This document shows, one piece after another, positions 20,370-34,837 of a stretch of DNA of 64,000 bases. The stretch lies in NCBI GenBank assembly GCA_014729775.1, contig WJJJ01000007.1, positions 94,302 to 158,301 of the forward strand. The letters are read 5' to 3'. This DNA comes from Candidatus Omnitrophota bacterium (lineage in GTDB: Bacteria > Omnitrophota > Gorgyraeia > Duberdicusellales > 4484-171). A program made the position numbers and the translations under genes. Every line of letters begins with the position of its first letter. Positions within the stretch are counted from its first letter, which is position 1. The notes below the pieces were generated by a model. That model was not told where the DNA came from, did not search any database, and was given only the letters and a program-made list of their open reading frames with translations.

Positions 20370-20443
20370 GGCGGTGTAGCTCAGGCTGGCAGAGCAAACG
20401 GCTCATACCCGTTTTGTCGGTGGTTCAAGTCCACTCGCCGCCA
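20370..20443 (+). tRNA. tRNA with CAT anticodon (elongator tRNA-Met or tRNA-Ile2-lysidine type; not initiator-like)
   Basis: Manual fold: acceptor GGCGGTG/CGCCGCC with a G1-C72 pair, D-arm GCTC/GAGC, anticodon loop CTCATAC, T-arm GGTGG-TTCAAGT-CCACT. 74 nt, no encoded CCA. Confidence 0.85.
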
Positions 20444-20881: not shown

Positions 20882-20957
20882 CCTCTTCTTTTGCAGTTTC
20901 CCCTGTGGAGGCAATGTTCACGGGAAGAAAAGCACTTTTTAGGAATATTGTACTGGT

Positions 20958-22478
20958 ATGGACATCGCTTCTCTTCTTTCTTCTCATGCCGCCGATCGGC
21001 CGGGAAAAACCGCGGTACAGACCCGCGGCCGGTCGATGTCGTTCCGTGAACTGGCGCGCCGGGCGTTTCAGGTAAGCGAGTTTCTCGAACGCCGGGGCGT
21101 GGTGAAGGGAACGCACGTCGGGATATTTCTCCCCAACAGCGTTGAGTCGGTGTGGATTCAGCTGGGAATCTTATGCCGGGGCGCAGTCTTGGTACCGCTG
21201 GACTATATGTTATCGCAGGAGGAAGTTATCGCCTTTCTTCATCACAGCGGCGCCGCGCTTCTTTTCTTCCAGCCGAAAAAGGGGATCGATGCCGCCGAGG
21301 TGCGGGCGCGTTGTCCGCACCTGCAGAGTGTGGTGCGCTGCGGCGATTCTCCGGGAGAGGAGCGAGGCGGTGATCTTGACGAGCTTGTTTCGTACAGCGG
21401 TCGGGAGCCGAAAGGTTCCGTGTCTCCGGATGATCCGGCGGCGCTGTTTTATACTTCGGGTTCGACGGGGCGGCCCAAAGGGGTGGTACTCAGTTTTGGA
21501 CATCTGGATAATCCCGTTGAAACGATAGGAAAATATTTGCAGGTGGAGGAGACAGACGTGTTTTTGTGCGGAGGAGTTCCGTTTTCTCATGTGGGCGGTC
21601 TCGATTATCTTCTTCTGACAGCCTCGTTCGGCACGACGCTGGTGCTCATGGAGCGTTTTCATCCTTTGGAATTCCTGAGAAACATCGCGGAGTTCGGCGT
21701 GACGATATTTTGCATTGTTCCGGCGATGTATGTCGCGATCCTTGCCCTGAAAGAGTACGAACGGTTTGATCTGTCTTCTCTGCGCTACGCCGTAGTATTC
21801 GGCGCTCCTTCTTCTCCGGCGTTATTGTGCAGGTTTCACCGGATGTGTCCCAATGCCGGAGTGCTCAACGGATGGGGCATGACCGAAACCGCCGCACCGA
21901 ACACGTTTTCTCCCCGGGACGAGGAAAAATTAAGCACGATCGGACGGTTTGAGCTCGGCACTGAAGCGCGGTTGAGCGATGATGCCGGACGGGAAATCTC
22001 CGGCCCGGGAGAAGGCGAGTTATGGGTGCGGGGGCCGGCGGTGATGAAGGAATATTTTAAGGACCTGGAACTTACCCGGCAGACAATCACGCCAGAGGGA
22101 TGGCTGAAAACAGGAGATATCGCCCGTCGCGACCGGGAAGGCATCTATACTATTGTAGGAAGAAAAAAGGATATGTTAAAGGTTGCCGGAGAGATCGTGT
22201 TTTGCGCCGAGGTCGAAGAGGCGCTCCAGATGCATCCGGAGGTGCGGGAAGCCGCCGTGATCGGCGTTCCCGACCGTTTCCGCGGAGAGGTGCCCAAGGC
22301 TTTTGTGGTTTTACGGGACGAGGCGGCGCATGGTGGCGAACATCTGCGGGAGTTCCTTCGCGCGCGCCTGGCCCATTTCAAAATTCCGCATTTTTTCCAG
22401 GTGTGCGGTTCATTGCCGAAAAACAGAACAGGGAAGATCGATAAACGGCTGTTAAGGAAAACAGAAGAATCCGTATAA
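20958..22478 (+). CDS. AMP-dependent synthetase/ligase (acyl-CoA or aryl-CoA ligase, ANL superfamily)
   Basis: AMP-binding motif YTSGSTGRPKGV, A8/A10-like motifs (GWLKTGD..., PKNRTGKIDKRLL). 506 aa. Confidence 0.85.
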   Translation: MDIASLLSSHAADRPGKTAVQTRGRSMSFRELARRAFQVSEFLERRGVVKGTHVGIFLPNSVESVWIQLGILCRGAVLVPLDYMLSQEEVIAFLHHSGAALLFFQPKKGIDAAEVRARCPHLQSVVRCGDSPGEERGGDLDELVSYSGREPKGSVSPDDPAALFYTSGSTGRPKGVVLSFGHLDNPVETIGKYLQVEETDVFLCGGVPFSHVGGLDYLLLTASFGTTLVLMERFHPLEFLRNIAEFGVTIFCIVPAMYVAILALKEYERFDLSSLRYAVVFGAPSSPALLCRFHRMCPNAGVLNGWGMTETAAPNTFSPRDEEKLSTIGRFELGTEARLSDDAGREISGPGEGELWVRGPAVMKEYFKDLELTRQTITPEGWLKTGDIARRDREGIYTIVGRKKDMLKVAGEIVFCAEVEEALQMHPEVREAAVIGVPDRFRGEVPKAFVVLRDEAAHGGEHLREFLRARLAHFKIPHFFQVCGSLPKNRTGKIDKRLLRKTEESV

Positions 22479-22499
22479 ACCGTTAAGGAGGAATACGTT

Positions 22500-23249
22500 A
22501 TGATGCAGCGGGACGTGCATATGAAACCCGGAGATTTACTCGAGTCGCTCCAGTTTCAGCCTGGTGATTTCGGTCCGGTCGCACTGGTGAGCGGACAGCC
22601 CCACCGGGCAAAAATGTGCCTTAAGAAGCTTGAGAACCCGGTGAAAAATTTTACCTTTTTGGGGTATACGTTTTGGACCGGGACCTACCAGGGGCAGAAG
22701 GTTACCGTAGGCAATGGAGGATTTTATGCGCCTGATTCGGCTTTTGTCACCGAACTGCTCTGTTTCGGCGGAGTCGACATATTAATCCGGCTGGGATCTT
22801 GCGGAGCGCTGCAGGAACAAATTGAGATCGGGGATTTTATCGTCGCGGATAAGATTCTTCGCGGAGACGGCGCGACCCGGTACTATGTGGATGATTCCTT
22901 TGTGCCCCGCGTGGACAGTGCACTTGCGAATTCCCTGTGTGCGCTTTTCCGCGGAGTGGGCACGGTGCACCAGGGCGGGATCTGGACCACGGATGCATTA
23001 TTCAAGGAAACCAAAGAGATCGTCAATCCTTATATTGAACGCGGCGCGATCGCCGTTGATATGGTGACTTCTCCGTTCGTGACCGTGGCCAATCAATACG
23101 GGAAGAAATGCGCGGCCGTGCTGTCGGTTTCGGACAATCTCATTACGGGCCGGCTCGGATTCACGGATTTTCGGTTTTATGAAGCGGAATTGAAGATGAC
23201 CGACGCGGTTTTTCAGCTCGTTGCGCAGAGCGAGGGAGCAAAAAAATGA
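22500..23249 (+). CDS. Nucleoside phosphorylase, PNP/UDP (phosphorylase-1) family; possible MTA/5'-deoxyadenosine phosphorylase
   Basis: 249 aa. Fold motifs (VTVGNGGFYAP, GSCGAL, DMVTSPF). AAGGAGG RBS. Confidence 0.65.
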   Translation: MMQRDVHMKPGDLLESLQFQPGDFGPVALVSGQPHRAKMCLKKLENPVKNFTFLGYTFWTGTYQGQKVTVGNGGFYAPDSAFVTELLCFGGVDILIRLGSCGALQEQIEIGDFIVADKILRGDGATRYYVDDSFVPRVDSALANSLCALFRGVGTVHQGGIWTTDALFKETKEIVNPYIERGAIAVDMVTSPFVTVANQYGKKCAAVLSVSDNLITGRLGFTDFRFYEAELKMTDAVFQLVAQSEGAKK

Positions 23250-23536
23250 ACATTGAATGGAGGCCCGATGCCGAGCAGGTGTTTCAGCAGGTCGTTTCTC
23301 ATTTGCCGCAGTTCCACCGGAGTATCGCGGAGCGGCTGGTAAGAGAAAAAGCCCCGGAACTCGCGCGGTCCCGCCAGGCGGAAAGAGTCACCCGGGAAGA
23401 CGTGATAGGCGCCTTCATGCAGGAAGTTCCCCCGGCTTTCAAAGAGATGCTTGAGCGGTTGCTTCACAAGCTGCGCATTCCCTGGGACGGTTCCCAAAAT
23501 GATCGAGCACAGACAGCAGATCAGGATACGGACTAG
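23246..23536 (+). CDS. PCP_red-like small protein (protochlorophyllide reductase C-terminal-domain-like)
   Basis: 96 aa, ATGA-coupled to the upstream gene. N-terminal W..DAEQVFQQV..LPQFHRSIAERLVREKA resembles standalone PCP_red domain proteins. Confidence 0.4.
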   Translation: MNIEWRPDAEQVFQQVVSHLPQFHRSIAERLVREKAPELARSRQAERVTREDVIGAFMQEVPPAFKEMLERLLHKLRIPWDGSQNDRAQTADQDTD

Positions 23537-23939
23537 CGCGGATCTCGTTTTTGATGAATGCGTCCGCTGGTGGAGAAGTCCGTGGTGGCCGCCGGTTCCG
23601 GTGGAGTTCCGGGAACTACAGCGTCACGCGGGAGAATGGGTATACGAACAGAAAATCAACATGCCCTGCGGTCCCCGATGGCGGGTGCGGCAGGTGCGCG
23701 CCGACCGCGGAGCGAAACGCGTCGAACGGAGATTTACCCGGGGAGTTTTTTCCGGCGGCGGGGAGCTGATAGATCTTCTGCCGGAGGAGGCGTCAACGAA
23801 AATTTCGTACGAGTTTTCTTTCCCTTCCCGGAATCCGGCGGTGGTATGCGCCTGGTACGCGGTGGCGAAATATTTTCACCGGCAAAGCGTGCAGAGAGTA
23901 TTCCATGCGATGAAAACCTATCTGGAGGCGGATGAATGA
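23499..23939 (+). CDS. SRPBCC-fold protein (polyketide cyclase/dehydrase-like), Trp/Arg-rich
   Basis: About 146 aa from the internal Met. Start is uncertain and it overlaps the previous gene out of frame. Fold assignment is by similarity pattern only. Confidence 0.4.
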   Translation: MIEHRQQIRIRTSADLVFDECVRWWRSPWWPPVPVEFRELQRHAGEWVYEQKINMPCGPRWRVRQVRADRGAKRVERRFTRGVFSGGGELIDLLPEEASTKISYEFSFPSRNPAVVCAWYAVAKYFHRQSVQRVFHAMKTYLEADE

Positions 23940-24946
23940 AAATTGCGGTGATCGGATGCGGCGCCATCGGAGGAACTCTTCTCGCCTATTTGTCCCGCGC
24001 GGGCGCAGACGTTAGGGGCGTAATGAAATCCTCTCAGCTCGCCGATGTGAGCGGAAAGGGCTTGCGGCTGGAAGGTGCGCGCGGCGCGGAGCAGGTCAAG
24101 GTGCGCGGGGTTGAACGTCTTGGGGAACCGGTGGATCTGGCGGTGTGCGCGACAAAAATCCCCGATCTGGAAGAAGCGTTGGAACGCGCCGCGCCGTTTC
24201 TGCGGGACGCGGTTACGGTGACGACTCAGAACGGGGTGGCGGCCGACGCGATTGCGCAGAGGTTCGTTCCCCGGGAGCGGATACTCAGCGGCGTGGTGAT
24301 GTTCGGGGCAACGTACCTGCCGCCTGCGAAGATCGTGCATCATTTTGAAGGTCCTCTTTTGCTGGGGAATCCCTGGGAAAAGAAGGTTCCCCGCGCCGAA
24401 GAGATCAAAAGGGAGTTGTCCCGGGCGGTGGAAATTTCTTTCTGTCCCGACATCCTTGGTGCAAAATATTTGAAATTATTCGTGAACCTGAATAACTGTG
24501 TTCCGGCAGTGCTGGGCTGTTCTTTGCAGGAGGCGTTTTCCTCTCCCGAAATTGCGGAAATCGCCGTTCGGTTAAACCGCGAAGCCTACCGGGTAGTGGC
24601 CGCGCGGGGGATCGTCCTGCAGAGTTTACCCACCTATCCCAAGGAACGGTTGGAAAAATTGGTGTCACTGCCGGTAAAAGAGGCCGCGGGAATTTTTTCT
24701 CGTATTATGCAGTCTTTGAGCGAAACTCCGGTGTACGGTTCGGTTTTGCAGAGTATCCGCCGTGGACGCAGGTCGGAGATCGATTATTTAAACGGAGAAA
24801 TAGTGCGGCTGGCCGCACAGGGTTCTCAGCCGGCGTTCTATAACCGGACTATCGTGGACATGGTGCATTCCGTGGAACAATCGGGACGCTTTTTCTCCCG
24901 GGAGGAATTAGTGAAAAAAATGGAGCAAGAAAAGGAGGCGGCATGA
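23936..24946 (+). CDS. Ketopantoate reductase-like (ApbA/PanE family) NAD(P)-dependent oxidoreductase
   Basis: N-terminal Rossmann motif MKIAVIGCGAIGG. 336 aa. ATGA overlap with the upstream gene. Confidence 0.75.
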   Translation: MKIAVIGCGAIGGTLLAYLSRAGADVRGVMKSSQLADVSGKGLRLEGARGAEQVKVRGVERLGEPVDLAVCATKIPDLEEALERAAPFLRDAVTVTTQNGVAADAIAQRFVPRERILSGVVMFGATYLPPAKIVHHFEGPLLLGNPWEKKVPRAEEIKRELSRAVEISFCPDILGAKYLKLFVNLNNCVPAVLGCSLQEAFSSPEIAEIAVRLNREAYRVVAARGIVLQSLPTYPKERLEKLVSLPVKEAAGIFSRIMQSLSETPVYGSVLQSIRRGRRSEIDYLNGEIVRLAAQGSQPAFYNRTIVDMVHSVEQSGRFFSREELVKKMEQEKEAA

Positions 24947-25542
24947 GCGCAGATCCGCAGCCCAAGATCGTATTTCCCAAAATAAAACTCACGGTCATTA
25001 AGAAAGAAGGGCATTGTTATCATCATTATGAGGTGGGTGACGAATTCATCCTGGACGACTTCACCCATCCGCCGAAGCATTTTTGCGCCGGTATTGTGAA
25101 ATCCGCGTTTCCCTGTTTTTATGCGCTTACCTTCGGGTCTGAATTCAAATTCATGGACAATACCAAATCGATTACGACTACTTGTCCCGATAACGGGAAG
25201 CTCACCTTTAAAATCGAACTGCTCGACGAACAGGGCGGGGTAATCGAAAAACCTAAGGAGAAGCCGCCGAAACCGAATCCGAAGCAGCTGGAGATTGAGG
25301 TGGAGGAAGTCCGCGGGCATTGTTTTTTCGGATACAAAAAGGGGGATACGTTTCGTACTACCGGGTTGAAAACCCCCGTGGACTTCTGCGGCGCGGCGTA
25401 CAGCGTGCTGTTCCCGGTATTGTTCGCGCTGAATTTCGGCGCCGAATTCCCGTTCGAAAAAAACCCGGTGTGCAAAACAGGAATCACCTGTCCCGATGGC
25501 GGCAACATCAAATTTAAAATTACAAGAGTGGAGGACCGATGA
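24943..25542 (+). CDS. Tandem-duplicated TIGR04076-like protein (two Cys/His-rich repeats)
   Basis: Two homologous halves of about 90 aa, each with EGHC/RGHC ... GDEF/GDTF ... FCxxxxxxxFP ... ALxFGxEF ... CPD(N/G)G ... FKI motifs. 4-nt overlaps with both neighbouring genes. Confidence 0.55.
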   Translation: MSADPQPKIVFPKIKLTVIKKEGHCYHHYEVGDEFILDDFTHPPKHFCAGIVKSAFPCFYALTFGSEFKFMDNTKSITTTCPDNGKLTFKIELLDEQGGVIEKPKEKPPKPNPKQLEIEVEEVRGHCFFGYKKGDTFRTTGLKTPVDFCGAAYSVLFPVLFALNFGAEFPFEKNPVCKTGITCPDGGNIKFKITRVEDR

Positions 25543-26792
25543 GAAGAGTCGTGATTACCGGACTCGGCGTGATCTGCGCCGCCGGAGAGGATAAAGACCG
25601 GTTTTATCAGAATTTGATCGACGGGGTGCCCTGCATTGAACGGGTTGAGAATTTTGACGTGAGTTTGTTTAATTCCAAAATTGCCTCTCAGGCGGCGGAT
25701 TTCGATCCGCGCAAATTTGATATTCCGGATTTTCAGCGCATGGACCGTTACGTCCAGATGTCACTGGCGTCGGCGAAACAGGCCGTGGACGATTCCGGGA
25801 TCGATTTTTCCCGGACCGACCGGCGCCGGTGCGGCGTGGTGCTCGCCAACGCGATCTGCGGCACGCGTTTCATGGAGGAAGAATTTTTGCTGGTGACCGA
25901 CTGGGGAAAAAATCCCATTGATCCGCGCAAAGGGCGTCCCTACCTGTATGACGCGGCCATGTTTAATACTCCCAGCGCGGAAATCGCGGCGCGTTACCGC
26001 ACACAGGGGATCAACTGTACGATTTCGACCGGGTGTACCGCCGGCACGGATTCGATCGGGTTTGCCTACGAGTTGATTCGGGAGGGCCGGCAGGAGTGCG
26101 TGCTCGCCGGCGCGGGAGAAGCGCCGATCACGCCGATCACCTTCGGCGCGTTCGATGTGGTAAACGTATTATCCAAAAGAAACGACGATCCCCATCGCGC
26201 GTCAAGACCGTTTGATCACCAGCGGGACGGATTCGTCATTTCCGAGGGCGCGGGAATTCTGATGCTGGAGGAATTAAATCATGCCCGGGAACGCGGCGCG
26301 CAGATCTATGCCGAAATCACCGGATACGGAACCAGTTGTAACGCCTATCATATGACGGATCTGCCGCCGGACGGGGAACCTATGGCCAGGTGCATGCGTG
26401 ATGCGCTTGCCGAAGCCGGCATTCCTCCGGATAAAATCGGATATGTGAACGCCCACGGCTCTTCCACCCGGCAGAACGACGCTTTTGAAACCGACGCGTA
26501 TAAAAAGGTATTTCAGGAGTATGCGTATCACGTACCCATTAGTTCCATAAAGTCCATGATCGGACATCCTTTGGCGGCGGCGAACGCGGTGGAAAGCGTA
26601 CTGTGCTGCATGGTGTTCCGGCACGGGTATCTTCCGCCGACGATTAATCATGAAGAGCCGGATCCGAAATGTGATCTCGATTACATACCGAACACGAAAC
26701 GAGAGGGTGCGCCGGAGTACATCCTGAAAACGAGCAGCGGGTTTTCCGGCATTCATTCTTCGATCGTTTTCAAAAGATGGAGCGCGCGATGA
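25539..26792 (+). CDS. Beta-ketoacyl synthase, type II PKS KS-alpha-like (FabF family), catalytically complete
   Basis: Active-site Cys in ISTGCTAGTDS. His residues in VNAHGSSTRQND and KSMIGHPLAAAN. 417 aa. Confidence 0.9.
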   Translation: MRRVVITGLGVICAAGEDKDRFYQNLIDGVPCIERVENFDVSLFNSKIASQAADFDPRKFDIPDFQRMDRYVQMSLASAKQAVDDSGIDFSRTDRRRCGVVLANAICGTRFMEEEFLLVTDWGKNPIDPRKGRPYLYDAAMFNTPSAEIAARYRTQGINCTISTGCTAGTDSIGFAYELIREGRQECVLAGAGEAPITPITFGAFDVVNVLSKRNDDPHRASRPFDHQRDGFVISEGAGILMLEELNHARERGAQIYAEITGYGTSCNAYHMTDLPPDGEPMARCMRDALAEAGIPPDKIGYVNAHGSSTRQNDAFETDAYKKVFQEYAYHVPISSIKSMIGHPLAAANAVESVLCCMVFRHGYLPPTINHEEPDPKCDLDYIPNTKREGAPEYILKTSSGFSGIHSSIVFKRWSAR

Positions 26793-28024
26793 AGGAACGA
26801 GTAGCCATTACGGGAATGGGAATAGTATCGCCCTGCGGTCTGAAAAAGGAAACGTTCTGGGCGAATTTGAAGCGGGCCGGATCGTACGTGGAAACCGTCA
26901 CACGATTCGACACGTCACTGTATCCGAGCCGGATCGCCGGACAGGTGCATGATCTTGATCCCTACACCCACCTTTCCGGCCGGTTGATCAAAAAAATCGA
27001 TGTGTTTTCTCATATGGCGCTGGTCGCCAGCGAACAGGCGCTTCAGGATGCCGGAGTGGATCCTGCCTCGGTGGACAAGAACCGGGTGGGGGTTTTCATG
27101 GGAAATGCTCTCGGTGGATGGCTGTTCGCGGAAACCGAGCTCAGAGACATGTATATCGAGGGTCGGGAAGGAATTTCGCCGTATATGGCCAGCGCGTGGT
27201 TTCCCGCGGCTCCGCAGGGACAGATTACGATTTATTATGGATTCAAGGGGTACAGCAAAACGATAGTCGCCGATCGAGCTTCTTCCGGACTCGCGTTATG
27301 GTACGGCGCAAGGACGATCAGGCAGAAAAAGAACGATTACGTATTGGCCGGAGGGATGGAAGCGCCTATTACCCCGTATGCCTTGCTGTGTGCCAATACC
27401 ATGGGCGGGTTATCGAAACAAAACCTCACGCCTGCCTCGGCGTATAAACCGTATGATTTATACCGCGACGGATTCGCCCTCGCAGAGGGCGCGGGCACCC
27501 TGATGCTGGAAAGCGAGACACAGGCGCGCCGGCGCGCGCGGCAGATTTACGGGTATCTTCAGGGGATCGGCTTTGCCTCGGACGGATACCATTACGCCCG
27601 GAGCGCTCCGGATTCGAGCGCGCTTGAATACGCGATCACCCAGTGCCTTGAAGATGCCGGATGGAAGACCGGCGAGGTCGATTACGTGTGTTTGGACGCG
27701 GAAGCGAGTCAGGTCGGCGACTGGTTGGAGTCCCGGGCGTTGAGAGAGGTGTTCGGCGCACATTGCGACCGGATGGCCATGAGCGCACCGAAATCGATGT
27801 TCGGTAATCTGTTGGGCGCGCAGACCGCGGTTGATCTGATTCTCACGTTGCTCTCGATGGAGCACGAGACGGTCCTGCCGACGATCAACTATCAAATGCA
27901 TGATCCTTACTGCGGGCTTGATTACACGCCGAACGTTCCCCGCCGCAGATCCATGCAAAAAGCGCTGCTGCTGTCCCGGGGCCGGGGCGGAATCCATGTG
28001 GTGGTGGCGGTCGAGAAAGCCTGA
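26777..28024 (+). CDS. KS-beta / chain-length-factor-like ketosynthase paralog lacking the Cys-His-His triad
   Basis: Thiolase fold, but the Cys position reads IVADRASSG and both His motifs are replaced (LDAEASQVGD, SMFGNLLGAQ). Overlaps KS-alpha by 16 nt. Confidence 0.8.
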   Translation: MERAMKERVAITGMGIVSPCGLKKETFWANLKRAGSYVETVTRFDTSLYPSRIAGQVHDLDPYTHLSGRLIKKIDVFSHMALVASEQALQDAGVDPASVDKNRVGVFMGNALGGWLFAETELRDMYIEGREGISPYMASAWFPAAPQGQITIYYGFKGYSKTIVADRASSGLALWYGARTIRQKKNDYVLAGGMEAPITPYALLCANTMGGLSKQNLTPASAYKPYDLYRDGFALAEGAGTLMLESETQARRRARQIYGYLQGIGFASDGYHYARSAPDSSALEYAITQCLEDAGWKTGEVDYVCLDAEASQVGDWLESRALREVFGAHCDRMAMSAPKSMFGNLLGAQTAVDLILTLLSMEHETVLPTINYQMHDPYCGLDYTPNVPRRRSMQKALLLSRGRGGIHVVVAVEKA

Positions 28025-28041
28025 GAAACAAAGGAGGGAGA

Positions 28042-28275
28042 ATGGAACTTTCCGAAGAAGTCCTTCAGACGATTTGTGAAACCTTGGAAGTAAAAAAGGA
28101 AGAGTGTCCGCCGGAACAGAAATTATACGATTCGATCGGGGTGGATTCCACGGAGATGGTCGAGCTGGTAGTCGCGCTCAATAAACGGTTCGGCATCAAA
28201 ATCGAAACGAACGAAATTACTAAGTTTTCGACGCCCTCTCAGATTTGTGAAATCGTCGCGAACAAGAAGGCATGA
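28042..28275 (+). CDS. Acyl carrier protein
   Basis: 77 aa. Phosphopantetheine-attachment context YDSIGVDSTEMVELVV. Confidence 0.8.
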   Translation: MELSEEVLQTICETLEVKKEECPPEQKLYDSIGVDSTEMVELVVALNKRFGIKIETNEITKFSTPSQICEIVANKKA

Positions 28276-28279
28276 TCCG

Positions 28280-29086
28280 ATGCGAATGGTGGATTTAAGC
28301 CTTCCTATCGACGATACCGCTTTTGAAGTGCACCCGTTGCGTATCGAGCGTACCGGACACAAGGAGGGGATCGAAAAGCTTAATAAAGTCATGATGTCAC
28401 GGATGCCGGGAGGAGCCGAACGCTTCAAGGCCGGTGAGCGCATCATCCGGCCTTCGGACGTGCCGGGTCAAGAGTTTCTTTCGCTGGAAATGGTCTACTC
28501 ATCCGTGCACAGCGGGACGCATTTGGATTATTCTTATCATTACGGAAGCCGGTCCGAGGGCCGGGCGTCGAAGCCGGCTTCGGAGATTCCCCTGGAATGG
28601 TGCGCCGGGCCGGGTGTGAAGCTGTCTTTGCGGGATGCGCAGCCGGGCGGGGCGATCACCGCAGACGACCTTCGGGCGGAACTGGACCGGATCGGGTATG
28701 GACTTAAGCCTTATGATATTGTGCTCATTTCCACCGGCTGCGACCGCTTGTTCGGCGGATCAGAATATTTCTCAGAATATCCGGGGATTGATCCCGGCGC
28801 GATCGATTTTCTTTTGGATTCCGGGATAAAAATTTTCGGGGTTGATACCATGGGAATTGACCGGCCGTATAAGTATATGATGAAGGAGTTCCTTGAGGAG
28901 AAAAACACGCAGGCGCTTTGGCCGGCGCATTTTCACGGCCGCAAAAGGGAATTCGTCCACATTGAACGTCTGGCGAATTTGGCGGCGCTTCCCGATTATG
29001 GATTTACCGTGTTCTGTTTTCCGGTGAAAATCCGTAATACCGGAGGAGCCTGGGCCAGGGTCGTGGCGCGGGTGCAAGAGCAGTGA
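28280..29086 (+). CDS. Cyclase-family protein (kynurenine formamidase-like fold, PF04199-type)
   Basis: About 268 aa from the ATG at 28280, just after the ACP stop. Metal-binding H-x-GTHxD-like motif (SSVHSGTHLD). Confidence 0.65.
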   Translation: MRMVDLSLPIDDTAFEVHPLRIERTGHKEGIEKLNKVMMSRMPGGAERFKAGERIIRPSDVPGQEFLSLEMVYSSVHSGTHLDYSYHYGSRSEGRASKPASEIPLEWCAGPGVKLSLRDAQPGGAITADDLRAELDRIGYGLKPYDIVLISTGCDRLFGGSEYFSEYPGIDPGAIDFLLDSGIKIFGVDTMGIDRPYKYMMKEFLEEKNTQALWPAHFHGRKREFVHIERLANLAALPDYGFTVFCFPVKIRNTGGAWARVVARVQEQ

Positions 29087-29118
29087 AAACAGGACGATGA
29101 AACGAAAGGAGGTTGTTC

Positions 29119-29547
29119 ATGGCGCATACGGTGAACAGAATCGTCATTGATGCCGATTACGAGAAAGTGTTCGAGATGAGCAACGATATCGGCCGCTGGA
29201 AAGAATTTTTTAATGAATATACCGATTCCAAAGTGCTCAAAAAGGAAGGGAAGAAAATTACCTTTGAATTAACCCATCAGAAAGGAACCCGCTGGACATC
29301 ATACCGGATATTGGCGAAAGAGGAGAGGTTCGCCTACGCGTCCCGGATGGAACCGATGGCTCCTTTTCAGTACATGAAAATCATATGGCTCTACCGGGAA
29401 ACCGAAGGGGGAACGGAGATGACATGGATTCAGGATTTCTCCATGGCGCCGGACGCGAAGGTGGATGATTCCCGGGCCGAACAGATGATTAACGAGCATT
29501 CCAAAGAAAATCTGAAGCGGTTTAAAGAGATCATCGAAAATTCCTAA
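29119..29547 (+). CDS. SRPBCC-fold protein (aromatase/cyclase-like, polyketide_cyc2-type)
   Basis: About 142 aa. AAGGAGG RBS 6 nt before the ATG at 29119. Confidence 0.6.
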   Translation: MAHTVNRIVIDADYEKVFEMSNDIGRWKEFFNEYTDSKVLKKEGKKITFELTHQKGTRWTSYRILAKEERFAYASRMEPMAPFQYMKIIWLYRETEGGTEMTWIQDFSMAPDAKVDDSRAEQMINEHSKENLKRFKEIIENS

Positions 29548-29552
29548 AGATC

Positions 29553-30686
29553 ATGCCGCGGAAACACTTTTGGGTATTCTGTCTGCTTTTTTTTACTCTT
29601 TCGTTCGGGGTCGCCGCGACGGCTGCGCTGGTTCCGTCGATCGCGGAGTATTTCGGACGGCCGAAAGAGGAGGCGATCAGGCTTACCTGGTTGTATATGC
29701 TTCCTTACGGCATTTTCGCGTTGTTCTGGGCTCCCCTCACCCGGGTAGTGAGAATAAAGACGCTGCTGACCTGCGCAACCGCGGGGTTTTCCGTCGCGGC
29801 GTTCCTGTTCAGTTTTGCGCCGACGTTGCCTCACGCGTTTCTCTACCGGTTTCTCATGGGGAGTTTCGGGTGCAGTTTTGTGCCGTTGTCGCTGATCGCG
29901 GTCGGCAAAACGGTCGATTCCGGCAAAAAAGGGAAATACATCGGAACGTTTTTTTCTCTTTCCTGGGTGTCGACGCTGATCAGCGTGTTCCTCAGCGGGT
30001 TCATTCCCTGGAGAATGATTTATCTTGTGCCTGCGGTGCTGGCGCTGTGCGCCTGTCTGTTGGTCCGCCTGTGGCTGGAAGATCTGGATTTCCGCCAGAA
30101 AGGGGTCGGGGTCAGTTATCTGAGGACTTTGCGCGATCCGGCGGCGTTTTCTTTCTTTCTGGTGATCATGGCCGGAAGTTTCTTGTATCACGGGGTGCAG
30201 CAGCGCCTGGGGATGTTTTTTGCGGACGCGTTTTCATTACGCCAGGTGGTGATCAGCAGTATTTATACGCTGGCTACGCTGAGCGCGATCGTGTTTGAAT
30301 TTACCGGAGGGCACCTGTGCAGTCGGTTCGGGAATATCCCGGTCACCCGCGTCGGGTTTTTCGTCATGAGCGGATTTATTCTGCTTTTGTTGTGTTCGCG
30401 GCAAATGCCGGTGCTGATCTGGAGCATTCCTCTTTGGGGCGCGGGATGGGCGTTGACCCACGTGGGGATCTCGTCGCGGTTGACCGATTTTCCCGATCAG
30501 GTGATGCGTGACGCGTCGAGTTTGAACAGTTCCCTGCGGTTTACCTTCGGGGGGCTGGGCGCGTTCGCCGGCGGGCTGTTATTGAACATAGTGGGATTCG
30601 GTTTTCTTTTTCTGATAATGGGAACGGGGATTGTTCTGTTAGGCGCAGTGCTGCCCAAAATGTTAGGGAGGAGAGGTGCAACATGA
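29553..30686 (+). CDS. MFS transporter (likely exporter)
   Basis: 377 aa, about 10-12 hydrophobic helices, MFS-like loop motifs. Confidence 0.8.
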   Translation: MPRKHFWVFCLLFFTLSFGVAATAALVPSIAEYFGRPKEEAIRLTWLYMLPYGIFALFWAPLTRVVRIKTLLTCATAGFSVAAFLFSFAPTLPHAFLYRFLMGSFGCSFVPLSLIAVGKTVDSGKKGKYIGTFFSLSWVSTLISVFLSGFIPWRMIYLVPAVLALCACLLVRLWLEDLDFRQKGVGVSYLRTLRDPAAFSFFLVIMAGSFLYHGVQQRLGMFFADAFSLRQVVISSIYTLATLSAIVFEFTGGHLCSRFGNIPVTRVGFFVMSGFILLLLCSRQMPVLIWSIPLWGAGWALTHVGISSRLTDFPDQVMRDASSLNSSLRFTFGGLGAFAGGLLLNIVGFGFLFLIMGTGIVLLGAVLPKMLGRRGAT

Positions 30687-31450
30687 AATCATTGGAAGGA
30701 AAAACGGCGATCGTGACCGGCGCCAGCGGCGGAATCGGACAGCAAATCGTGCGCAGGCTCGCGGCGCAGAAGATGAAAATCGTACTGGCCGCGCGGCGGA
30801 TGGAAGTACTTGAGGAGCTCAAATCCGGTCTCCCCGTGCCGGAAGACGCGGTATGCGTCAAATGCGACGTGACCGATCAGCGGAATCTGGAGGAACTTGT
30901 CGCCGCCGCGGTACGTTCCTTCGGGAAGATCGATGCCCTGATAAACGGCGCCGGCGTATCCAGTCAGCATCCGTTCTGGGAACAGCCGCTCGAAGATATC
31001 GGAAAGATTATGTATACCAACTATTACAGTTATGTCATGCTTGCCCGTCTGGTGGTGAATCATATGAAAGACGCCGGCAGCGGACATATCGTAAACATTA
31101 CCAGCGGGTCGGTAATGGTGGACCCGCCGCCGCGTAATTTTATCGTGTATACCTCGCTGAAGGTCGCGCTGCGGGCGTTCGCCAAGGGGCTGTTCTGGGA
31201 AATGAGAGATTTCGGTATCAAGGTGACTTCTATTTTCCCCGGAGTGACCAAAACGCCTTTAACCGGAAAATTGAAAGAGGTCTCGAAAACACAGGAGAGA
31301 CTTATTGATCCGGCGGTCGTTGCCGATACCGTGGTGTTCGCGCTCCGGCAGCCGGCCAATGCCTGTCCTTTGGAGCTGGCGGTGATCAACCAGCAGACTC
31401 CCTGGACCAAGCCGGTCATTCCGTTTTCGCAGGACCATCCGGAAGAATAA
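30683..31450 (+). CDS. Short-chain dehydrogenase/reductase (SDR) family oxidoreductase
   Basis: TGASGGIGQ Rossmann motif, NAG, and YxxxK (YTSLK). 255 aa. ATGA overlap with the MFS gene. Confidence 0.85.
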   Translation: MKSLEGKTAIVTGASGGIGQQIVRRLAAQKMKIVLAARRMEVLEELKSGLPVPEDAVCVKCDVTDQRNLEELVAAAVRSFGKIDALINGAGVSSQHPFWEQPLEDIGKIMYTNYYSYVMLARLVVNHMKDAGSGHIVNITSGSVMVDPPPRNFIVYTSLKVALRAFAKGLFWEMRDFGIKVTSIFPGVTKTPLTGKLKEVSKTQERLIDPAVVADTVVFALRQPANACPLELAVINQQTPWTKPVIPFSQDHPEE

Positions 31451-31521
31451 AGAAGGAAGAGGCTGAGAGGGGAAGGAACAAAAGTGCAGAGATATCAAAG
31501 TATCGCGTTTGATTTTTTGCG

Positions 31522-31550: not shown

Positions 31551-31587
31551 TGATGTGCTCACAGAAGAAAAAATAAAAAAGGAGGAG

Positions 31588-33051
31588 ATGATGAAGGTTT
31601 TATTCGTTTCACCGAAACTCGGTGCATGGGCTACTCACGGAGAACACCGGGCGCCGAACCAGCTCTACGCGCAATGGGCCGCGTATATCCGGCAGCAGGG
31701 CTATGAAGATCTGGAAGTGCTGGATTGTAAGGCCTGGGATATTCCCATGGACGCAATGGTGGAAGAGGTCAAAAAAAAGAAACCGGATGCGGTGGTGTTG
31801 GGCGACATGCTGCATTCCTACGGAGGATTCGCGATCTTGTGGTATTTCAACGAAACCGCTTCGCGGATCAAGCATGCGCTGCCGCAGACCAGGATTATTG
31901 TCGGAGGGCTTTGGTATTCATCGATGCCGACGGAAACACTAAAGCAGAATCCCGCGATTGATTACGTGGTGATGGGAGAAGAGGAAGCGTTCTGCGAATT
32001 GATCGACGCGCTGGCAAAGGAGAAGTCAACCGAAGCGATTCCCGGGGTGACTTCGAGGATTGACGGGAAAGTCGTGCTGGGGCCGCACCGTCCTCTGCGG
32101 ATGGATCTGGATTCTCTTCCTTTGCCGGCCTATGATTTGTTTCCGATGGACAAATACGTCGGCCATACGCACTGGAAGCCGTTCGTGGAAATGGTAACCT
32201 CACGGGGCTGTCCCTCGGCCTGTACGTTTTGCTACGAGTGGGACCAGTATGATCCCCGGCACCCGGAAGATTTCCTCAAATGGCGGGCCAAGTCCCCGGA
32301 ACGGGTGATCGAGGAGCTGGAGTTACTGCACACGAAGTTCGGCACTAAGGTGGTGGTCATCCAGGACGATAACTTTAACGTGAATCCCGACCGCGTGAAG
32401 CGGTTTTGCGAATTGAAGAAAGAGCGGAATATTCCGGTCAAATGGGTGTCACTGGGCCGTGCAGTGGATTGGATCAACTGCGAGAAAATTCTTCCGCTCA
32501 TGAAAGAAACCGGGATGTTTATCGGAGTGTTCGGGATCGAAGTGACGACTCCCGAAGAATTAAAGCAGATCGCCAAAGGGATCACGGTTGAGCAGATCCA
32601 GAAAACCGTGGAAATTCTTCGCGCCAATGATATCGCGATCGTTGCCGATATCATGATGGGGTTTGACGACGATACCGAACAGCGGATTAAACAACGTTAC
32701 GAATTTACCGACAAAGTCGATCCCGACATTCTTTGGATCGGATACGTCACGCCCGCGCCGAATTCGCCGATTTGGCGGCAGCGGGTGAAACGGGGGGAGA
32801 TCGATCCGTCCAAGATCGATTTCCTGAAGTGGGATTTTCTCCATCCGGTAATGGATACCCCGCATCTGACGGTGGATGATTACGGCCGGTTGGGCGCATG
32901 GTGCATGCGGGAATTTTATTCGAAACCCGGGCGCATCCAGCGGATCATGACCAGTGATTTTGACGAACTCGCGAAACTGTGTTTCCAGGACGTGATGCGC
33001 GGAGTTTCGAAATGGGAAGAAGGAGCAGTGAAGGGAGAGAAACACATCTGA
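31588..33051 (+). CDS. B12-binding domain radical SAM enzyme (class B rSAM)
   Basis: N-terminal B12-binding-like region. CxxxCxxC radical-SAM cluster motif in GCPSACTFCYEWDQ. GGAGG RBS. Start is the first or second ATG of MMKV. Confidence 0.85.
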   Translation: MMKVLFVSPKLGAWATHGEHRAPNQLYAQWAAYIRQQGYEDLEVLDCKAWDIPMDAMVEEVKKKKPDAVVLGDMLHSYGGFAILWYFNETASRIKHALPQTRIIVGGLWYSSMPTETLKQNPAIDYVVMGEEEAFCELIDALAKEKSTEAIPGVTSRIDGKVVLGPHRPLRMDLDSLPLPAYDLFPMDKYVGHTHWKPFVEMVTSRGCPSACTFCYEWDQYDPRHPEDFLKWRAKSPERVIEELELLHTKFGTKVVVIQDDNFNVNPDRVKRFCELKKERNIPVKWVSLGRAVDWINCEKILPLMKETGMFIGVFGIEVTTPEELKQIAKGITVEQIQKTVEILRANDIAIVADIMMGFDDDTEQRIKQRYEFTDKVDPDILWIGYVTPAPNSPIWRQRVKRGEIDPSKIDFLKWDFLHPVMDTPHLTVDDYGRLGAWCMREFYSKPGRIQRIMTSDFDELAKLCFQDVMRGVSKWEEGAVKGEKHI

Positions 33052-33116: not shown

Positions 33117-34034
33117 ATGATTTGCGACGCGCACATTCATTACATTCCGCAAGAGCTTTCCGAGCATACTTCGTTTTACCGCGGAGTATGGACGCGCAGG
33201 GATGCGTTGTACCGTTATCTGGAGGAGGAAGGGATCGAACGGGCCCTGCTGGTATATCCTTCCACCGACGCTCATCTCAAGATCGGGATTCGGGACACCG
33301 TGCGGATGTATAACTCCGCGGCCGAACGGGTGATGCGGGATAATCCCAAAGTGCTCGCGGCGGCCTTGGTAAATCCGCACGAACGGGATTCTCTGGAGGT
33401 GCAGATTGATTCCCTTGCGCGGCGGGGATTCCGGGCGGTCAGCCTGAGTTCAAGTTACGAGGGCAAGTTTCTGGTGCGGGAACTGTTTCCGCTTTTTGAC
33501 GCCGCCGCCCGGCATCAAATGGCGGTGTACATTCATCCTCAGACCATTAACCCGATCGGTTTTGAACGGGTCAAAGATCCGCTGCTGATGCCGGTTCTTG
33601 AATACAGCTTTGACCTTTCGATGTGCATGGGATTAATGATGATGGAAGGGGTGTTTTCCCGCTTTCCCCTGCCGTTTGTGTTTTCCTCGCTGGGCGGAGT
33701 GATTCCCCTGCTCGCCGGCCGTTTCGATCGGGTGTATGCGATGCTGCGCGCGCGGGGATACGTGAAGGATTTAGGCCGGCCGCCCACGGAAATCCTGGGC
33801 ACGGTGTATGTTGATATTTCCGGAGCGACGCCCGCGACGCTGGCGTTGGCCCGAGATCTTTACGGGGATGACCGTCTTCTCTGGGGTTCCGATTATCCGG
33901 TACACGCCGATGCGGACCGGCGCGGTGCGTTACTGGCGGATGTTCCCGCGGCCGCCAGGCGTAAAATTCAGCGGGAGAATTTTTTTGCGGTGTTCGGTAT
34001 GACGATTCCGCCGGGAAAAAAGGAGCGGGAATGA
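33117..34034 (+). CDS. Amidohydrolase family protein (amidohydrolase_2/TIM-barrel metal-dependent hydrolase)
   Basis: N-terminal MICDAHIHY metal-binding motif. 305 aa. No SD is visible upstream. Confidence 0.75.
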   Translation: MICDAHIHYIPQELSEHTSFYRGVWTRRDALYRYLEEEGIERALLVYPSTDAHLKIGIRDTVRMYNSAAERVMRDNPKVLAAALVNPHERDSLEVQIDSLARRGFRAVSLSSSYEGKFLVRELFPLFDAAARHQMAVYIHPQTINPIGFERVKDPLLMPVLEYSFDLSMCMGLMMMEGVFSRFPLPFVFSSLGGVIPLLAGRFDRVYAMLRARGYVKDLGRPPTEILGTVYVDISGATPATLALARDLYGDDRLLWGSDYPVHADADRRGALLADVPAAARRKIQRENFFAVFGMTIPPGKKERE

Positions 34035-34837
34035 TCGTATACGTGAACGGCTCTTTTCGCGATCAAAGTGCCTGCGGAGAAGTGTATGAACCCGGCTTTC
34101 TTTTCGGATGGGGATTGTTTGAAACCATGCGGGTCTACGGCGGCAAGCTTCCTTTTCTCCATCTGCATCTGGAGCGGTTGAAACGCGGCATGGGCCTGGT
34201 GCGTCTGGAACCGGTTTCATGTGAATGGGAACATACGCTGCAGGAAACACTGCGGCGCAACGAGATAGACGAAGGATACGTGCGTATTTCTGTGTATAAA
34301 CGGAAGGAAGGAACCGGGGTAAGCATATATGCGGCGCCGTTTCGATATTACGGTCCGCAGATGTATGAACGCGGGGTTGATCTTTTCTTTTCTCCCTGTA
34401 CGAGGCATCCCGGCGAGATTGCGTCGCGGGTCAAGTCGATGAGTTATCTGCAGAACCGTCTTGCCTGGCTCCAGGCCCAGGAACAGGGATGCGCTGAGGC
34501 GCTCATGGCCGGTCCCTGCAGAACACTGCTCGGCGGCGCCCGGAGTAATGTGTTTATCGTCCGTCACGGGGAAACAGTTACCCCGGCGGCCCGGGACGGG
34601 GCGTTTGAAGGGGTGACCAGGAAAGTCGTGCTGGATATGCTGAGCGATTTAAAGATACCGTTTCGGGAAGGGAAGGTATCTGCCGGCGATGTGTATGCCG
34701 CCGACGAGGTATTTCTTACCAGCGCGCTCATGGAGATCATGCCGGTCGCCCGCTGCGGACGGCTTGAGGTAGGAACGCGGGAGAAAACCGTGATCCCGGC
34801 ATTGCGCGCCCGGTATCGGGAGATTGTGTATGAGTAA
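34031..34837 (+). CDS. Class IV aminotransferase (branched-chain aminotransferase/ADC lyase family), PLP-dependent
   Basis: 268 aa with fold-type IV motifs (ETMRVYGGK, ...NVFIV..G...TP). ATGA overlap with the amidohydrolase. Confidence 0.75.
   Translation: MIVYVNGSFRDQSACGEVYEPGFLFGWGLFETMRVYGGKLPFLHLHLERLKRGMGLVRLEPVSCEWEHTLQETLRRNEIDEGYVRISVYKRKEGTGVSIYAAPFRYYGPQMYERGVDLFFSPCTRHPGEIASRVKSMSYLQNRLAWLQAQEQGCAEALMAGPCRTLLGGARSNVFIVRHGETVTPAARDGAFEGVTRKVVLDMLSDLKIPFREGKVSAGDVYAADEVFLTSALMEIMPVARCGRLEVGTREKTVIPALRARYREIVYE

Follow-up and report, generated by a model that had tools for sequence, protein, structure and literature searches.

A gene triad of an uncultured Omnitrophota bacterium, encoding an intact ketosynthase (KSα), a catalytically dead partner (KSβ) and an ACP, is the genuine KSα/chain-length factor (CLF)/ACP core of an aromatic (type II) polyketide synthase (PKS). 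Taken as one claim, our full explanation is that the triad is a minimal PKS of an early-branching, non-actinomycete lineage, and we put its probability at roughly 80%. The genes lie in a stretch of 64,000 nt, referred to here as the window (Candidatus Omnitrophota bacterium, GCA_014729775.1, contig WJJJ01000007.1, 94,302-158,301 of the forward strand; Table 1). The triad itself is ordinary, because the Arg that it has instead of the CLF Gln is normal in an old non-actinomycete branch of CLFs. The gene cluster that surrounds it is unusually widely conserved.

Table 1. Features of the gene cluster, with positions in the window, supporting matches and occurrence at related loci.
Feature	Position	Strand	Evidence	Occurrence and remarks
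tRNA gene	20370..20443	+	Rfam RF00005, 60 bits	Upstream cluster edge
Cupin	20499-20768			Precedes AMP-forming acyl ligase
AMP-forming acyl ligase (AMP-ligase)	20958..22478	+	Pfam AMP-binding	Candidate starter-unit activator
PNP_UDP_1 nucleoside phosphorylase/nucleosidase-like protein	22500..23249	+	Pfam, 117 bits	58/67 loci; 64-73% identical in most Omnitrophota, 39-49% in a divergent subgroup; also L005
Small DUF2621/PCP_red-like protein	23246..23536	+	Weak Pfam matches	69/71 loci; homologous to C-terminal domain of Peptidase_U32 protein in L087
Possible second SRPBCC-like protein	23451..23939	+	Weak, transitive evidence only	
ApbA/PanE-family NAD(P)H reductase	23936..24946	+	Pfam/NCBIfam	73/74 loci; also Desulfobacterota L005, Nitrospirota-type L087
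Tandem Cys-rich TIGR04076 domain pair, function unassigned	24943..25542	+	NCBIfam TIGR04076, 102 bits, two stretches	54/74 loci, directly upstream of KSα; two separate genes in L087
KSα, catalytically intact ketosynthase	25539..26792	+	Pfam ketoacyl-synt N+C	
KSβ/chain-length factor, dead triad	26777 (longest ORF) or more likely 26789, to 28024	+	Pfam ketoacyl-synt N+C	
ACP	28042..28275	+	Pfam PP-binding, 47.8 bits	
PF04199 'Cyclase' (OxyN-type polyketide cyclase family)	28247..29086	+	Pfam, 97 bits	Syntenic in 78/86 loci
Monodomain SRPBCC aromatase/cyclase, TcmN/WhiE type	29113..29547	+	PDB 2rez (TcmN), E 8e-29; WhiE 3tvr	
MFS transporter	29553..30686	+	Pfam MFS_1	57/64 loci with enough flank
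SDR oxidoreductase (possible ketoreductase)	30683..31450	+	Pfam adh_short/KR	56/59 loci
B12-binding radical SAM enzyme, BchE/HpnJ-like	31555..33051	+	Pfam; NCBIfam BchE, 202 bits, below family cut-off	49/55 loci; 72-82% identity mostly, 47-54% in divergent subgroup
Amidohydro_2, non-oxidative (aromatic) decarboxylase family	33117..34034	+	Pfam	46/51 loci
Class IV aminotransferase/aminodeoxychorismate-lyase-like	34031..34837	+	Pfam Aminotran_4; all NCBIfam matches below cut-off	Detected in just 18 loci
MtnA-like (IF-2B family) isomerase and small ORF (35752-36222)	34824..36222	+		Isomerase in 36/44 loci
Class II aldolase-SCP2 lipid-binding fusion	36219..37211	+	Pfam Aldolase_II + SCP2	28/40 loci; also Desulfobacterota L005
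Aldehyde dehydrogenase	37245..38681	+	Pfam Aldedh, 378 bits	Last gene before rplU

Gene structure of the triad

All three ORFs were confirmed on the + strand at the positions in Table 1, and their Pfam domains bear out the preliminary description of the region as a triad of KS-alpha, dead KS-beta and ACP. That description also holds for the active sites of KSα and the ACP. KSα carries the motif ISTGCTAGTDS, and its catalytic set (Cys166, His306, His343 and Lys338), including the Cys and both His residues read from the sequence at the outset, is invariant across 80 loci. The ACP has a standard DS phosphopantetheine site (Ser36, within GVDS), which is invariant in 81 loci. With these residues unchanged in 80-81 loci, the pattern of the triad is far beyond chance. 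The closest solved relatives of KSα are the actinorhodin (act) KS (1tqy_A, 358 bits) and then AntD (6smo_B).

KSβ is a ketosynthase paralogue directly downstream of KSα and coupled to it. The two genes had been thought to overlap by 16 nt, which is true of the longest KSβ ORF, but not of the probable start at ATG 26789, where the overlap with the KSα stop is 4 nt (ATGA). As Met5 of the longest ORF, encoded by this ATG, is the first residue in 107 of 120 orthologs, and a GGAG precedes it at 26779-26782, the real KSβ is probably 411 aa long.

The active site of KSβ

The motifs IVADRASSG, LDAEASQVGD and SMFGNLLGAQ are all present in KSβ, and alignment confirms that its three catalytic residues are gone: Arg167 occupies the Cys/Gln column, Asp307 the first His column and Asn344 the second. 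A CLF lacks the Cys and, in most cases, the His pair. The canonical Gln is missing, as first described, but the residue in its place is Arg and not Asp; the Asp, residue 166, directly precedes it and is aligned with Glu160 in act CLF. Pairwise HMMER alignment with FabF (1j3n), alignment of act CLF with FabF and a MAFFT alignment of 288 sequences all agree on Arg167, and put neither a Cys nor a Gln in this column. Nor is KSβ a decarboxylating ketosynthase of the KSQ type, which retains both His and has Gln in the Cys column: KSβ has Arg there, and both of its His are replaced.

Among 120 KSβ orthologs (66-100% identical), Asp166 is found in 120/120, Lys or Arg at position 167 in 120/120 (78 Lys, 42 Arg), and Asp307 and Asn344 in 119/120 each. 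KSβ is under strong purifying selection, as this conservation shows. The gatekeepers of act CLF (F109/T112/F116) correspond to Trp115/Ala118/Leu122 in KSβ, which are invariant.

Phylogeny and distribution of the Asp-Arg/Lys pair

In a neighbour-joining (distance) tree of 42 sequences (411 columns, 100 bootstraps, rooted with FabF), all KSβ sequences and act CLF were monophyletic (bootstrap 82/100), KSα grouped with act KS (71/100) and FabF fell outside both clades. This places KSβ among the CLFs and apart from KSα and FabF. By bit score KSβ is closer to FabF (265) than to act CLF (208), a nearness to FabF that also holds for act CLF versus act KS. Some proteins are natural fusions of KSα and KSβ, one of which (P0133) has Asp-Arg in its C-terminal half.

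The Asp-Arg/Lys pair is also present in CLFs of Clostridium beijerinckii/puniceum (where the CLF gene adjoins PF04199 and SRPBCC cyclases), Ktedonobacter racemifer, Archangium, Sorangium, Leptolyngbya and Bacillota, and such CLFs span Clostridium, Ktedonobacter, Myxococcota, Cyanobacteria and Desulfobacterota. In our sample, which is biased toward relatives of this KSβ, most CLFs, drawn from at least seven phyla, bear Asp-Lys/Arg at the site of the Gln. The pair characterises the non-actinomycete lineage and is no peculiarity of this window. The proposal of a divergent CLF lineage thus stands as far as divergence goes, but this is no new lineage. In terms of type II PKS enzymology, the textbook CLF Gln turns out to be an actinomycete trait.

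Charge is compensated across the vestigial active site. Across the 288-sequence alignment, position 307 is acidic when position 167 is basic in about 240 of about 260 cases (~92%), a neutral residue at 167 (Ser, Ile, Met or Cys) pairs with Asn or Ala at 307, and Gln or Ala at 167 together with Asp307 pairs with Arg at 344, although few independent lineages lie behind these counts. Exceptions are the Ktedonobacter-type sequences, which have Asp-Arg with His/His, and five sequences that have Asp-Arg with Ala at 307. The role of Asp166-Arg/Lys167 is most likely structural, with a buried charge pair, presumably a salt bridge, to Asp307 filling the vestigial active site. Charge compensation suggests a structural over a catalytic role and is thus relevant to a long-standing dispute about whether the CLF primes the chain.

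The surrounding gene cluster

The minimal PKS is flanked by a monomeric TcmN-type aromatase/cyclase (ARO/CYC), in which Arg65 and the aromatic pocket residues are invariant, and by an OxyN-type (PF04199) cyclase. Both adjoin the triad directly, and 74-78 of 86 loci retain them. This arrangement fits the KS-CLF-ACP-TcmN-OxyN layout described as 'ancestral' (PMC7693217), and Ca. Omnitrophica is among the phyla reported to have KS-CLF pairs (PMC10132072). Our literature search on Omnitrophota clusters returned this kind of catalogue mention only, and no product for any of them.

Synteny of the 18-kb cluster extends over at least 80 Omnitrophota species, one of which has a genome of 1.28 Mb. It is largely common to a Desulfobacterota MAG (L005), and core genes are also present in a Nitrospirota-type contig (L087). 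Its most conserved gene encodes the B12-binding radical SAM enzyme. The nearest solved relatives of the Amidohydro_2 protein are the decarboxylases ACMSD and LigW, and the family is also represented in the Clostridium and Desulfobacterota clusters. ORF 35752-36222 gave no direct family match, and the gene at the same position in L002 and L005 matches IF-2B. Aldehyde:ferredoxin oxidoreductases (AFOR) occur in the clusters of L005, L087 and some Omnitrophota loci. The possible second SRPBCC-like protein gave no direct match in a Pfam search; a region of L087 (4596-5027) with a weak Polyketide_cyc2 match aligns by tblastn with window positions 23520-23924 (28% identity, E 1e-11). At the upstream edge, ORF 20241-20498 is spurious because it contains the tRNA gene.

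These genes suggest how the product may be made. KSα would carry out all Claisen condensations on malonyl-ACP, and KSβ, its translationally coupled and non-catalytic partner, would form a heterodimer with it and shape the chain-length tunnel, as judged from sequence. The natural KSα-KSβ fusions, and an AF2 model of low confidence solely in the gatekeeper/interface segment, indirectly favour such pairing. The TcmN-type and PF04199 cyclases would then fold the poly-β-keto chain, and tailoring of what we infer to be an aromatic product could involve the co-conserved reductases, the B12-radical-SAM enzyme and the Amidohydro_2 protein. The MFS transporter may move the product or a precursor.

It is conceivable, but we consider it unlikely, that the triad is the heart of an ~18-kb cluster whose product is no optional antibiotic but a core aromatic polyketide with anaerobic tailoring, processing of a deoxyadenosyl adduct included. 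Such a product could be a quinone-like redox compound or a membrane phenolic; the cluster is kept even in genomes of 1.3-1.8 Mb. The PNP-like and MtnA-like proteins, the aldolase-SCP2 fusion and the aldehyde oxidiser would in that case process a 5'-deoxyadenosyl adduct of the polyketide, following a logic known from the futalosine and hopanoid side-chain pathways. Alternatively, these four might merely salvage a by-product of the radical SAM enzyme. With synteny in at least 80 species of a phylum that is largely uncultured and has small genomes, the aromatic PKS cluster offers a concrete target for cloning. Non-actinomycete KS/CLF pairs that are soluble in E. coli are in demand, and the cluster is a possible clue to host interaction or redox chemistry in Omnitrophota.

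Priming and alternative readings

KSα could bring about priming by decarboxylating malonyl-ACP, or a non-acetate starter could be loaded in loci that have the AMP-ligase; if the Asp166-Arg/Lys167 pair is a structural trait of the lineage, neither route would depend on a CLF Gln. The missing Gln might instead be an adaptation to non-decarboxylative priming, with the ligase charging the ACP or KSα with a fatty or aryl acid so that the CLF could dispense with a decarboxylase-type residue, an idea that we regard as possible but doubtful. The ligase has an equivalent, syntenic place upstream of KSα in 47 of 64 Omnitrophota loci (median offset relative to the KSα start, -4480), so ligase priming, as first suggested, is plausible. 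An AMP-ligase and cupin pair also accompanies an Asp-Arg-type CLF and a chorismate-binding enzyme in Leptolyngbya, and the ligase has among its solved relatives the anthranilate-CoA ligase AuaEII, which we take to belong to a type II PKS (aurachin) pathway. However, the CLF motif is the same at L001, L002 and L005 (ligase absent within about 10 kb) and at L087, which also has no ligase nearby. The motif is equally unchanged in the Clostridium cluster, where a KSIII gene offers another device for non-acetate priming and no AMP-ligase was found in the retrieved ~8.7 kb upstream and 10 kb downstream. The ligase therefore does not explain the motif, and its family and structure matches do not resolve its substrate specificity. 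The need for the CLF Gln in priming is itself disputed in the act KS-CLF literature. The functional non-actinomycete CLF AntE lacks this Gln (PMC6638757), yet AntDE is reported to make the octaketide anthraquinone AQ-256, assembled from eight malonyl-CoA (PMC12538586). An aromatic type II PKS can therefore work without the Gln, contrary to the preliminary description, in which decarboxylative priming needed it.

Other readings concern the nature of the heterodimer and of KSβ. CLF-like partners without Gln are typical of the ishigamide (Iga11/12), aryl polyene and anammox systems, the cluster here co-conserves both an SDR and an ApbA-type reductase, and KSβ scores FabF above act CLF, all of which would suit a fatty-acid-like or highly reducing KS/CLF heterodimer that makes a reduced acyl or polyene chain. 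We nevertheless think this highly improbable: the cluster (20.4-38.7 kb) contains no FabZ/DH-type dehydratase or enoyl reductase to accompany a ketoreductase, two aromatic cyclase families adjoin the triad instead, the best solved relatives of KSα are act KS and AntD, and KSβ clusters with act CLF in the tree. The invariance of Asp166, Lys/Arg167, Asp307, Asn344 and Gln349 could reflect a retained binding or catalytic role. That KSβ has gained a new activity, or binds a ligand such as a carboxylate or phosphate of a starter or cofactor, through the first four of these residues would fit their near-invariance in the orthologs and the positive charge kept through Lys/Arg exchange. This is very unlikely in our view, as both His needed for malonyl decarboxylation are lost, the non-catalytic act CLF conserves the same columns too (as Glu-Gln/Asp/Arg) and charge compensation fits a structural ion pair. 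Loss of all three catalytic residues might also mark KSβ as a decaying duplicate of KSα or FabF, a pseudogene, which has a negligible chance of being right and is already refuted by conservation. The KSβ ORF has its full length and can be aligned with FabF from one end to the other, its AF2 model is confident (pLDDT 87.8, with low confidence confined to the gatekeeper/interface segment), and more than 200 intact, full-length relatives (52-100% identity, at least 80 species) keep Asp166, Lys/Arg167, Asp307 and Asn344.

Comparison with known systems

The actinorhodin KS-CLF (PDB 1TQY) shares with the triad its two-gene architecture, fold (TM about 0.9) and tree clade. Act CLF and KSβ both have an acidic residue before the Cys column, Asp at the first His column and alignable gatekeepers, but they are ~33% identical, and where KSβ has Asp166-Arg167 and, in the second His column, Asn344, act CLF, from an aerobic actinomycete, has Glu160-Gln161 and Arg. 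The AQ-256 anthraquinone PKS of Photorhabdus (AntD/AntE, PDB 6SMO) is likewise a non-actinomycete aromatic type II system whose CLF lacks Gln, and AntD ranks second among the solved relatives of KSα. For AntE, the Gln column is reported to hold Asp (PMC6638757), which may be the same Asp-Arg pair shifted by one column in the reading, and, in contrast to KSβ, its C-terminal third is reported to be unlike that of any other CLF. The anammox pair amxFabF2/amxFabFmut (PDB 9S5H) and Iga11/Iga12 resemble the triad in combining an active KS with a triad-less KS paralogue as a chain-length factor without Gln. They differ in making reduced chains with FabZ-type partners and no aromatic cyclases, and have Val or Thr at the Cys column, as reported for amxFabFmut (bioRxiv 10.64898/2026.05.19.726425), where the KSβ lineage has Arg/Lys.

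The clostrubin producers C. beijerinckii/C. puniceum (ClrA/ClrB) offer a further comparison. Their CLF (P0142, which from its organism and gene context is probably ClrB) is only ~38% identical to KSβ and, unlike it, retains His in the second His column (Asp-Arg/Glu/His), and their cluster has a KSIII, two PPTases and hydrolases while lacking the B12-radical-SAM, PNP, MtnA-like and aldolase-SCP2 genes. This PKS, from an anaerobe and put in the 'ancestral' clade by the literature, nonetheless has the same Asp-Arg pair (VADRASG) and, in common with the Omnitrophota cluster, a KSα, a KSβ, a PF04199 cyclase, a 145-aa SRPBCC protein and an Amidohydro_2 protein.

Organization of the KSα, KSβ and ACP genes

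[quoted passage not shown] This triad, as recognized in the preliminary description, was confirmed with two corrections, concerning the CLF residue at the active-site position (Arg, not Asp) and the KSβ start (probably of the 4-nt ATGA type). KSα retains Cys166 (ISTGCTAG), His306, His343 and Lys338. Neither these residues nor Ser36, the phosphopantetheine site of the ACP, vary across 80 related loci; the intact KSα active site (Cys and both His) and ACP Ser noted previously both hold. The solved structures nearest to KSα are actinorhodin KS (act KS, 1tqy_A, 358 bits) and Photorhabdus AntD (6smo_B).

KSβ, which is 100% identical to NCBI GF333_02030 by protein search, probably starts at ATG 26789 rather than at 26777, giving a protein of 411 aa, as in most orthologs. 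This fifth codon of the longest ORF is the start in 107 of 120 orthologs. It forms an ATGA overlap with the KSα stop and has GGAG 6 nt upstream, a junction that reads as classic translational coupling. The 16-nt overlap of KSα and KSβ described earlier therefore applies to the longest ORF but not to the start that most orthologs use. Downstream, the ORF called for the PF04199 cyclase begins at GTG 28247 and thereby shares 29 nt with the ACP gene (28247-28275); its true start may lie further downstream.

Genes of the co-directional cluster, in order, with their occurrence in the 80 Omnitrophota loci (tblastn; denominators are loci with enough flank)
Gene	Position	Loci	Remarks
Cupin
AMP-ligase		47/64
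PNP_UDP_1 (PNP)	22500-23249	58/67
DUF2621/PCP_red-like small protein	23246-23536	69/71
Possible second SRPBCC	23451-23939
ApbA-type reductase		73/74
Tandem TIGR04076 protein	24943-25542	54/74
KSα	25539-26792		417 aa; both KS halves (Pfam)
KSβ	26777-28024 (longest ORF)		415 aa; both KS halves (Pfam)
ACP	28042-28275		77 aa; PP-binding (Pfam)
PF04199 cyclase
SRPBCC	29113-29547
MFS		57/64
SDR		56/59
B12-radical SAM		49/55	72-82% identity in most loci
Amidohydro_2		46/51
Class IV aminotransferase
MtnA-like isomerase + small ORF	34824-36222	36/44 (MtnA-like)	Small ORF IF-2B-like by position only, without direct match
Class II aldolase fused to SCP2	36219-37211	28/40
Aldehyde dehydrogenase	37245-38681

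KSβ has Arg in place of the CLF Gln

KSβ had been described as lacking all three catalytic residues, and indeed Arg167, Asp307 and Asn344 occupy its Cys and two His columns. A HMMER alignment with Thermus FabF placed VADRASS opposite VTACATG, and hence Arg167 in the Cys column. The actinorhodin CLF (act CLF) sequence, confirmed by a PDB search as residues 10-415 of 1tqy_B, has Gln161 in the Cys column and Glu160 just before when aligned with FabF. We then compared the columns of window residues 166/167/307/344 after aligning act CLF with 288 KSβ-like proteins in MAFFT; here act CLF reads Glu-Gln-Asp-Arg and the window KSβ reads Asp-Arg-Asp-Asn. The two proteins share Asp in the first His column, but differ where act CLF has Gln (Arg in KSβ) and the preceding Glu (Asp in KSβ). 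From these three alignments, therefore, the original assignment of Asp instead of Gln was one residue off, and neither Cys nor Gln is found at the active-site column of KSβ.

KSβ belongs with the chain-length factors

KSβ scores higher against FabF (265 bits) than against act CLF (208 bits). This is not evidence against its being a CLF, because act CLF likewise favours FabF (200 bits) over act KS (134 bits). Nor does the fold discriminate between KS and CLF types, since a Foldseek search of the PDB with an AlphaFold2 model of KSβ returned FabF, act KS and act CLF all at TM ~0.9. In a neighbour-joining tree (42 sequences, 411 columns, 100 bootstraps), every protein without the catalytic triad fell in one clade (82), among them act CLF and, for two KSα-KSβ fusions, the C-terminal half. 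The window KSα clustered with act KS and with Clostridium and Desulfobacterota KSα (71), and FabF lay outside both groups. Natural single-chain KSα-KSβ fusions occur in other metagenomic organisms (P0122, 869 aa; P0133 and six more, 784-834 aa), and in both fusions examined the C-terminal half lacks Cys (Asp-Arg in P0133, Asp-Thr in P0122). Giant modular PKSs with summed scores headed the representative-library search, from which we used the ~410-aa and fused ~800-aa proteins.

That KSβ is a pseudogene or frameshifted gene was ruled out by its conservation among orthologs. A protein search gave 120 KSβ clusters at 66-100% identity; those with an organism name were all Omnitrophota/Omnitrophica, most being without one. 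All of them have Asp166, followed at 167 by Lys in 78 and by Arg in 42; Asp307 and Asn344 are each present in 119 of 120 and Gln349 in all 120. The AlphaFold2 model (31 sequences) had a pLDDT of 87.8 and a pTM of 0.90. Its sole low-confidence part, residues 109-136 in the 411-aa numbering, includes the gatekeeper positions; in KS-CLFs of known structure this segment is found at the dimer interface.

A scan of GTDB species, each represented by a single genome, gave 102 relatives, of which 80 loci were kept. These are MAGs labelled Omnitrophota, uncultured Planctomycetia/Planctomycetales (many loci in the range L013-L079) or 'bacterium', together with one contig binned as 'Methanosarcinales archaeon' (L043); three are complete chromosomes (1.28, 1.52 and 1.82 Mb). 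As the Planctomycetia/Planctomycetales-labelled loci and L043 have 52-73% identity to Omnitrophota KSβ, they are probably mislabelled or mis-binned.

The Asp-Arg/Lys pair in other lineages

The pair also occurs in representatives of 35-54% identity from a 50%-clustered library and in matches to a profile search seeded with them. At 166/167/307/344, Asp-Arg-Asp-Asn was found in 147 sequences, Asp-Lys-Asp-Asn in 77, Asp-Arg-His-His in 15 (the Ktedonobacter group), Asp-Ser-Asn-Asn in 12 (named members are Nitrospirota MAGs), Asp-Arg-Glu-His in nine (four of them Clostridium proteins), Asp-Arg-Asp-His in seven (Archangium, Bacillota) and Asp-Arg-Ala-Asn in five; true KS/FabF sequences read Ala-Cys-His-His. 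Exact-sequence look-up traced library protein P0142 to the clostrubin producers C. beijerinckii and C. puniceum, and P0168 to Archangium violaceum. It also placed K. racemifer in the P0160 cluster and showed the named members of the P0121 cluster to be Deltaproteobacteria MAGs (one partial sequence labelled Proteobacteria). The Clostridium locus runs KSα-KSβ-175 aa-PF04199 cyclase-SRPBCC...Amidohydro_2-ACP...KSIII.

Across these sequences, the Asp-Arg/Lys pair appears to be the rule outside actinomycetes. In functional AntE, the CLF of the Photorhabdus anthraquinone pair, Asp stands in for the Gln of act CLF, and CLFs from outside the actinomycetes fall into clades of their own (PMC6638757); Ca. 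Omnitrophica is among 14 phyla with KS-CLF pairs (PMC10132072). The earlier proposal of a divergent CLF lineage thus stands in that KSβ lacks the Gln and is of the non-actinomycete type, but the pair is common to Clostridium, Ktedonobacter and Archangium CLFs. We conclude that the triad is probably an aromatic type II minimal PKS of the 'ancestral' type, with a lineage-typical Asp-Arg/Lys pair in its CLF. We found no description of the CLF Arg/Lys itself in the literature searched; since the trait does not seem to have been described explicitly before, the finding is modestly useful to specialists.

In the 288-sequence alignment, a basic residue at 167 is accompanied by Asp/Glu at 307 in ~240 of ~260 cases. 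In lineages where 167 is neutral (Ser, Ile, Met, Cys), position 307 is Asn or Ala. In act CLF and P0217, which combine Gln/Ala at 167 with Asp307, position 344 is Arg. The pattern, which comes from few independent lineages and has the Asp-Arg-His-His and Asp-Arg-Ala-Asn groups as exceptions, looks like one conserved buried ion pair in a vestigial active site.

The AMP-ligase and priming

Could the absence of the CLF Gln reflect priming by the nearby AMP-ligase, as had been suggested? The offset of the ligase is the same in 73% of species, and an impression from three loci that it was not conserved was overturned by the 80-locus synteny matrix. Priming by the ligase is therefore reasonable, and in many species the ligase may determine the starter unit. 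It is not, however, the reason for the absent Gln, because loci lacking a nearby ligase have the same CLF motif. The NCBIfam and PDB neighbours of the ligase, all below family cut-offs, comprise ligases of the fatty-acyl, feruloyl, OSB, anthranilate and benzoate types and do not single out a substrate. In Leptolyngbya, a cluster whose CLF is of the Asp-Arg type also has an AMP-ligase and cupin pair, next to a chorismate-binding enzyme. The role of act CLF in priming has long been disputed. Given this dispute, and because AntDE works without Gln according to the literature, the assumption that priming requires the CLF Gln is less secure than was stated.

Content and spread of the gene cluster

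The core lies in one co-directional cluster between a tRNA (20370-20443; Rfam, 60 bits), which is its upstream edge, and rplU (38722). The mechanical ORF 20241-20498 is spurious because this tRNA overlaps it. An Rfam scan of the whole window returned two tRNAs only (the second at 3204-3287, minus strand) and no riboswitch in the cluster. The SRPBCC protein at 29113-29547 matches TcmN (2rez, E 8e-29) and WhiE ARO/CYC, and its Arg65 is invariant. The ORF at 23451-23939 had no direct Pfam match, but may be a second SRPBCC cyclase-like gene: it has 28% identity (E 1e-11) to a 143-aa protein, itself only weakly Polyketide_cyc2, of L087, a contig that is Nitrospirota-type by its closest named relatives. 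The 199-aa protein directly upstream of KSα has two Cys-rich TIGR04076 domains, which are separate genes in L087. A Peptidase_U32 protein of L087 (3151-4593) has a C-terminal domain homologous to the DUF2621/PCP_red-like protein. U32 proteins include the O2-independent hydroxylases UbiU/UbiV; the window cluster has no U32 gene.

Synteny of this ~18-kb cluster (window 20241-38681) extends over at least 80 species of Omnitrophota, among them complete chromosomes of 1.28-1.82 Mb, and the B12-radical-SAM gene is its most conserved member. A Desulfobacterota MAG (L005) and L087 share much of the cluster. L005 has the B12-radical-SAM, ApbA, PKS core, both cyclase, MFS, Amidohydro_2, PNP, both IF-2B and aldolase-SCP2 genes, and an unannotated 196-aa ORF matching the TIGR04076 protein (52%, tblastn), but aldehyde:ferredoxin oxidoreductases where the window has aldehyde dehydrogenase. 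L087, whose KSβ is of the Asp-Ser type, keeps the PKS core and has the Peptidase_U32 protein. Beyond a catalogue listing, we found no Omnitrophota type II PKS product in the literature. What most merits further study is the conservation of the cluster across a candidate phylum whose genomes are reduced, and its sharing with two other anaerobic lineages.

Taken together, four of the cluster genes, encoding PNP_UDP_1, the MtnA-like isomerase, the class II aldolase and the aldehyde dehydrogenase (in other loci, AFOR or ADH in place of the last), resemble a DHAP shunt for 5'-deoxyadenosine arising from the radical-SAM enzyme. The conserved aldolase-SCP2 fusion hints at a different substrate, perhaps a polyketide intermediate that is hydrophobic and possibly adenosylated.
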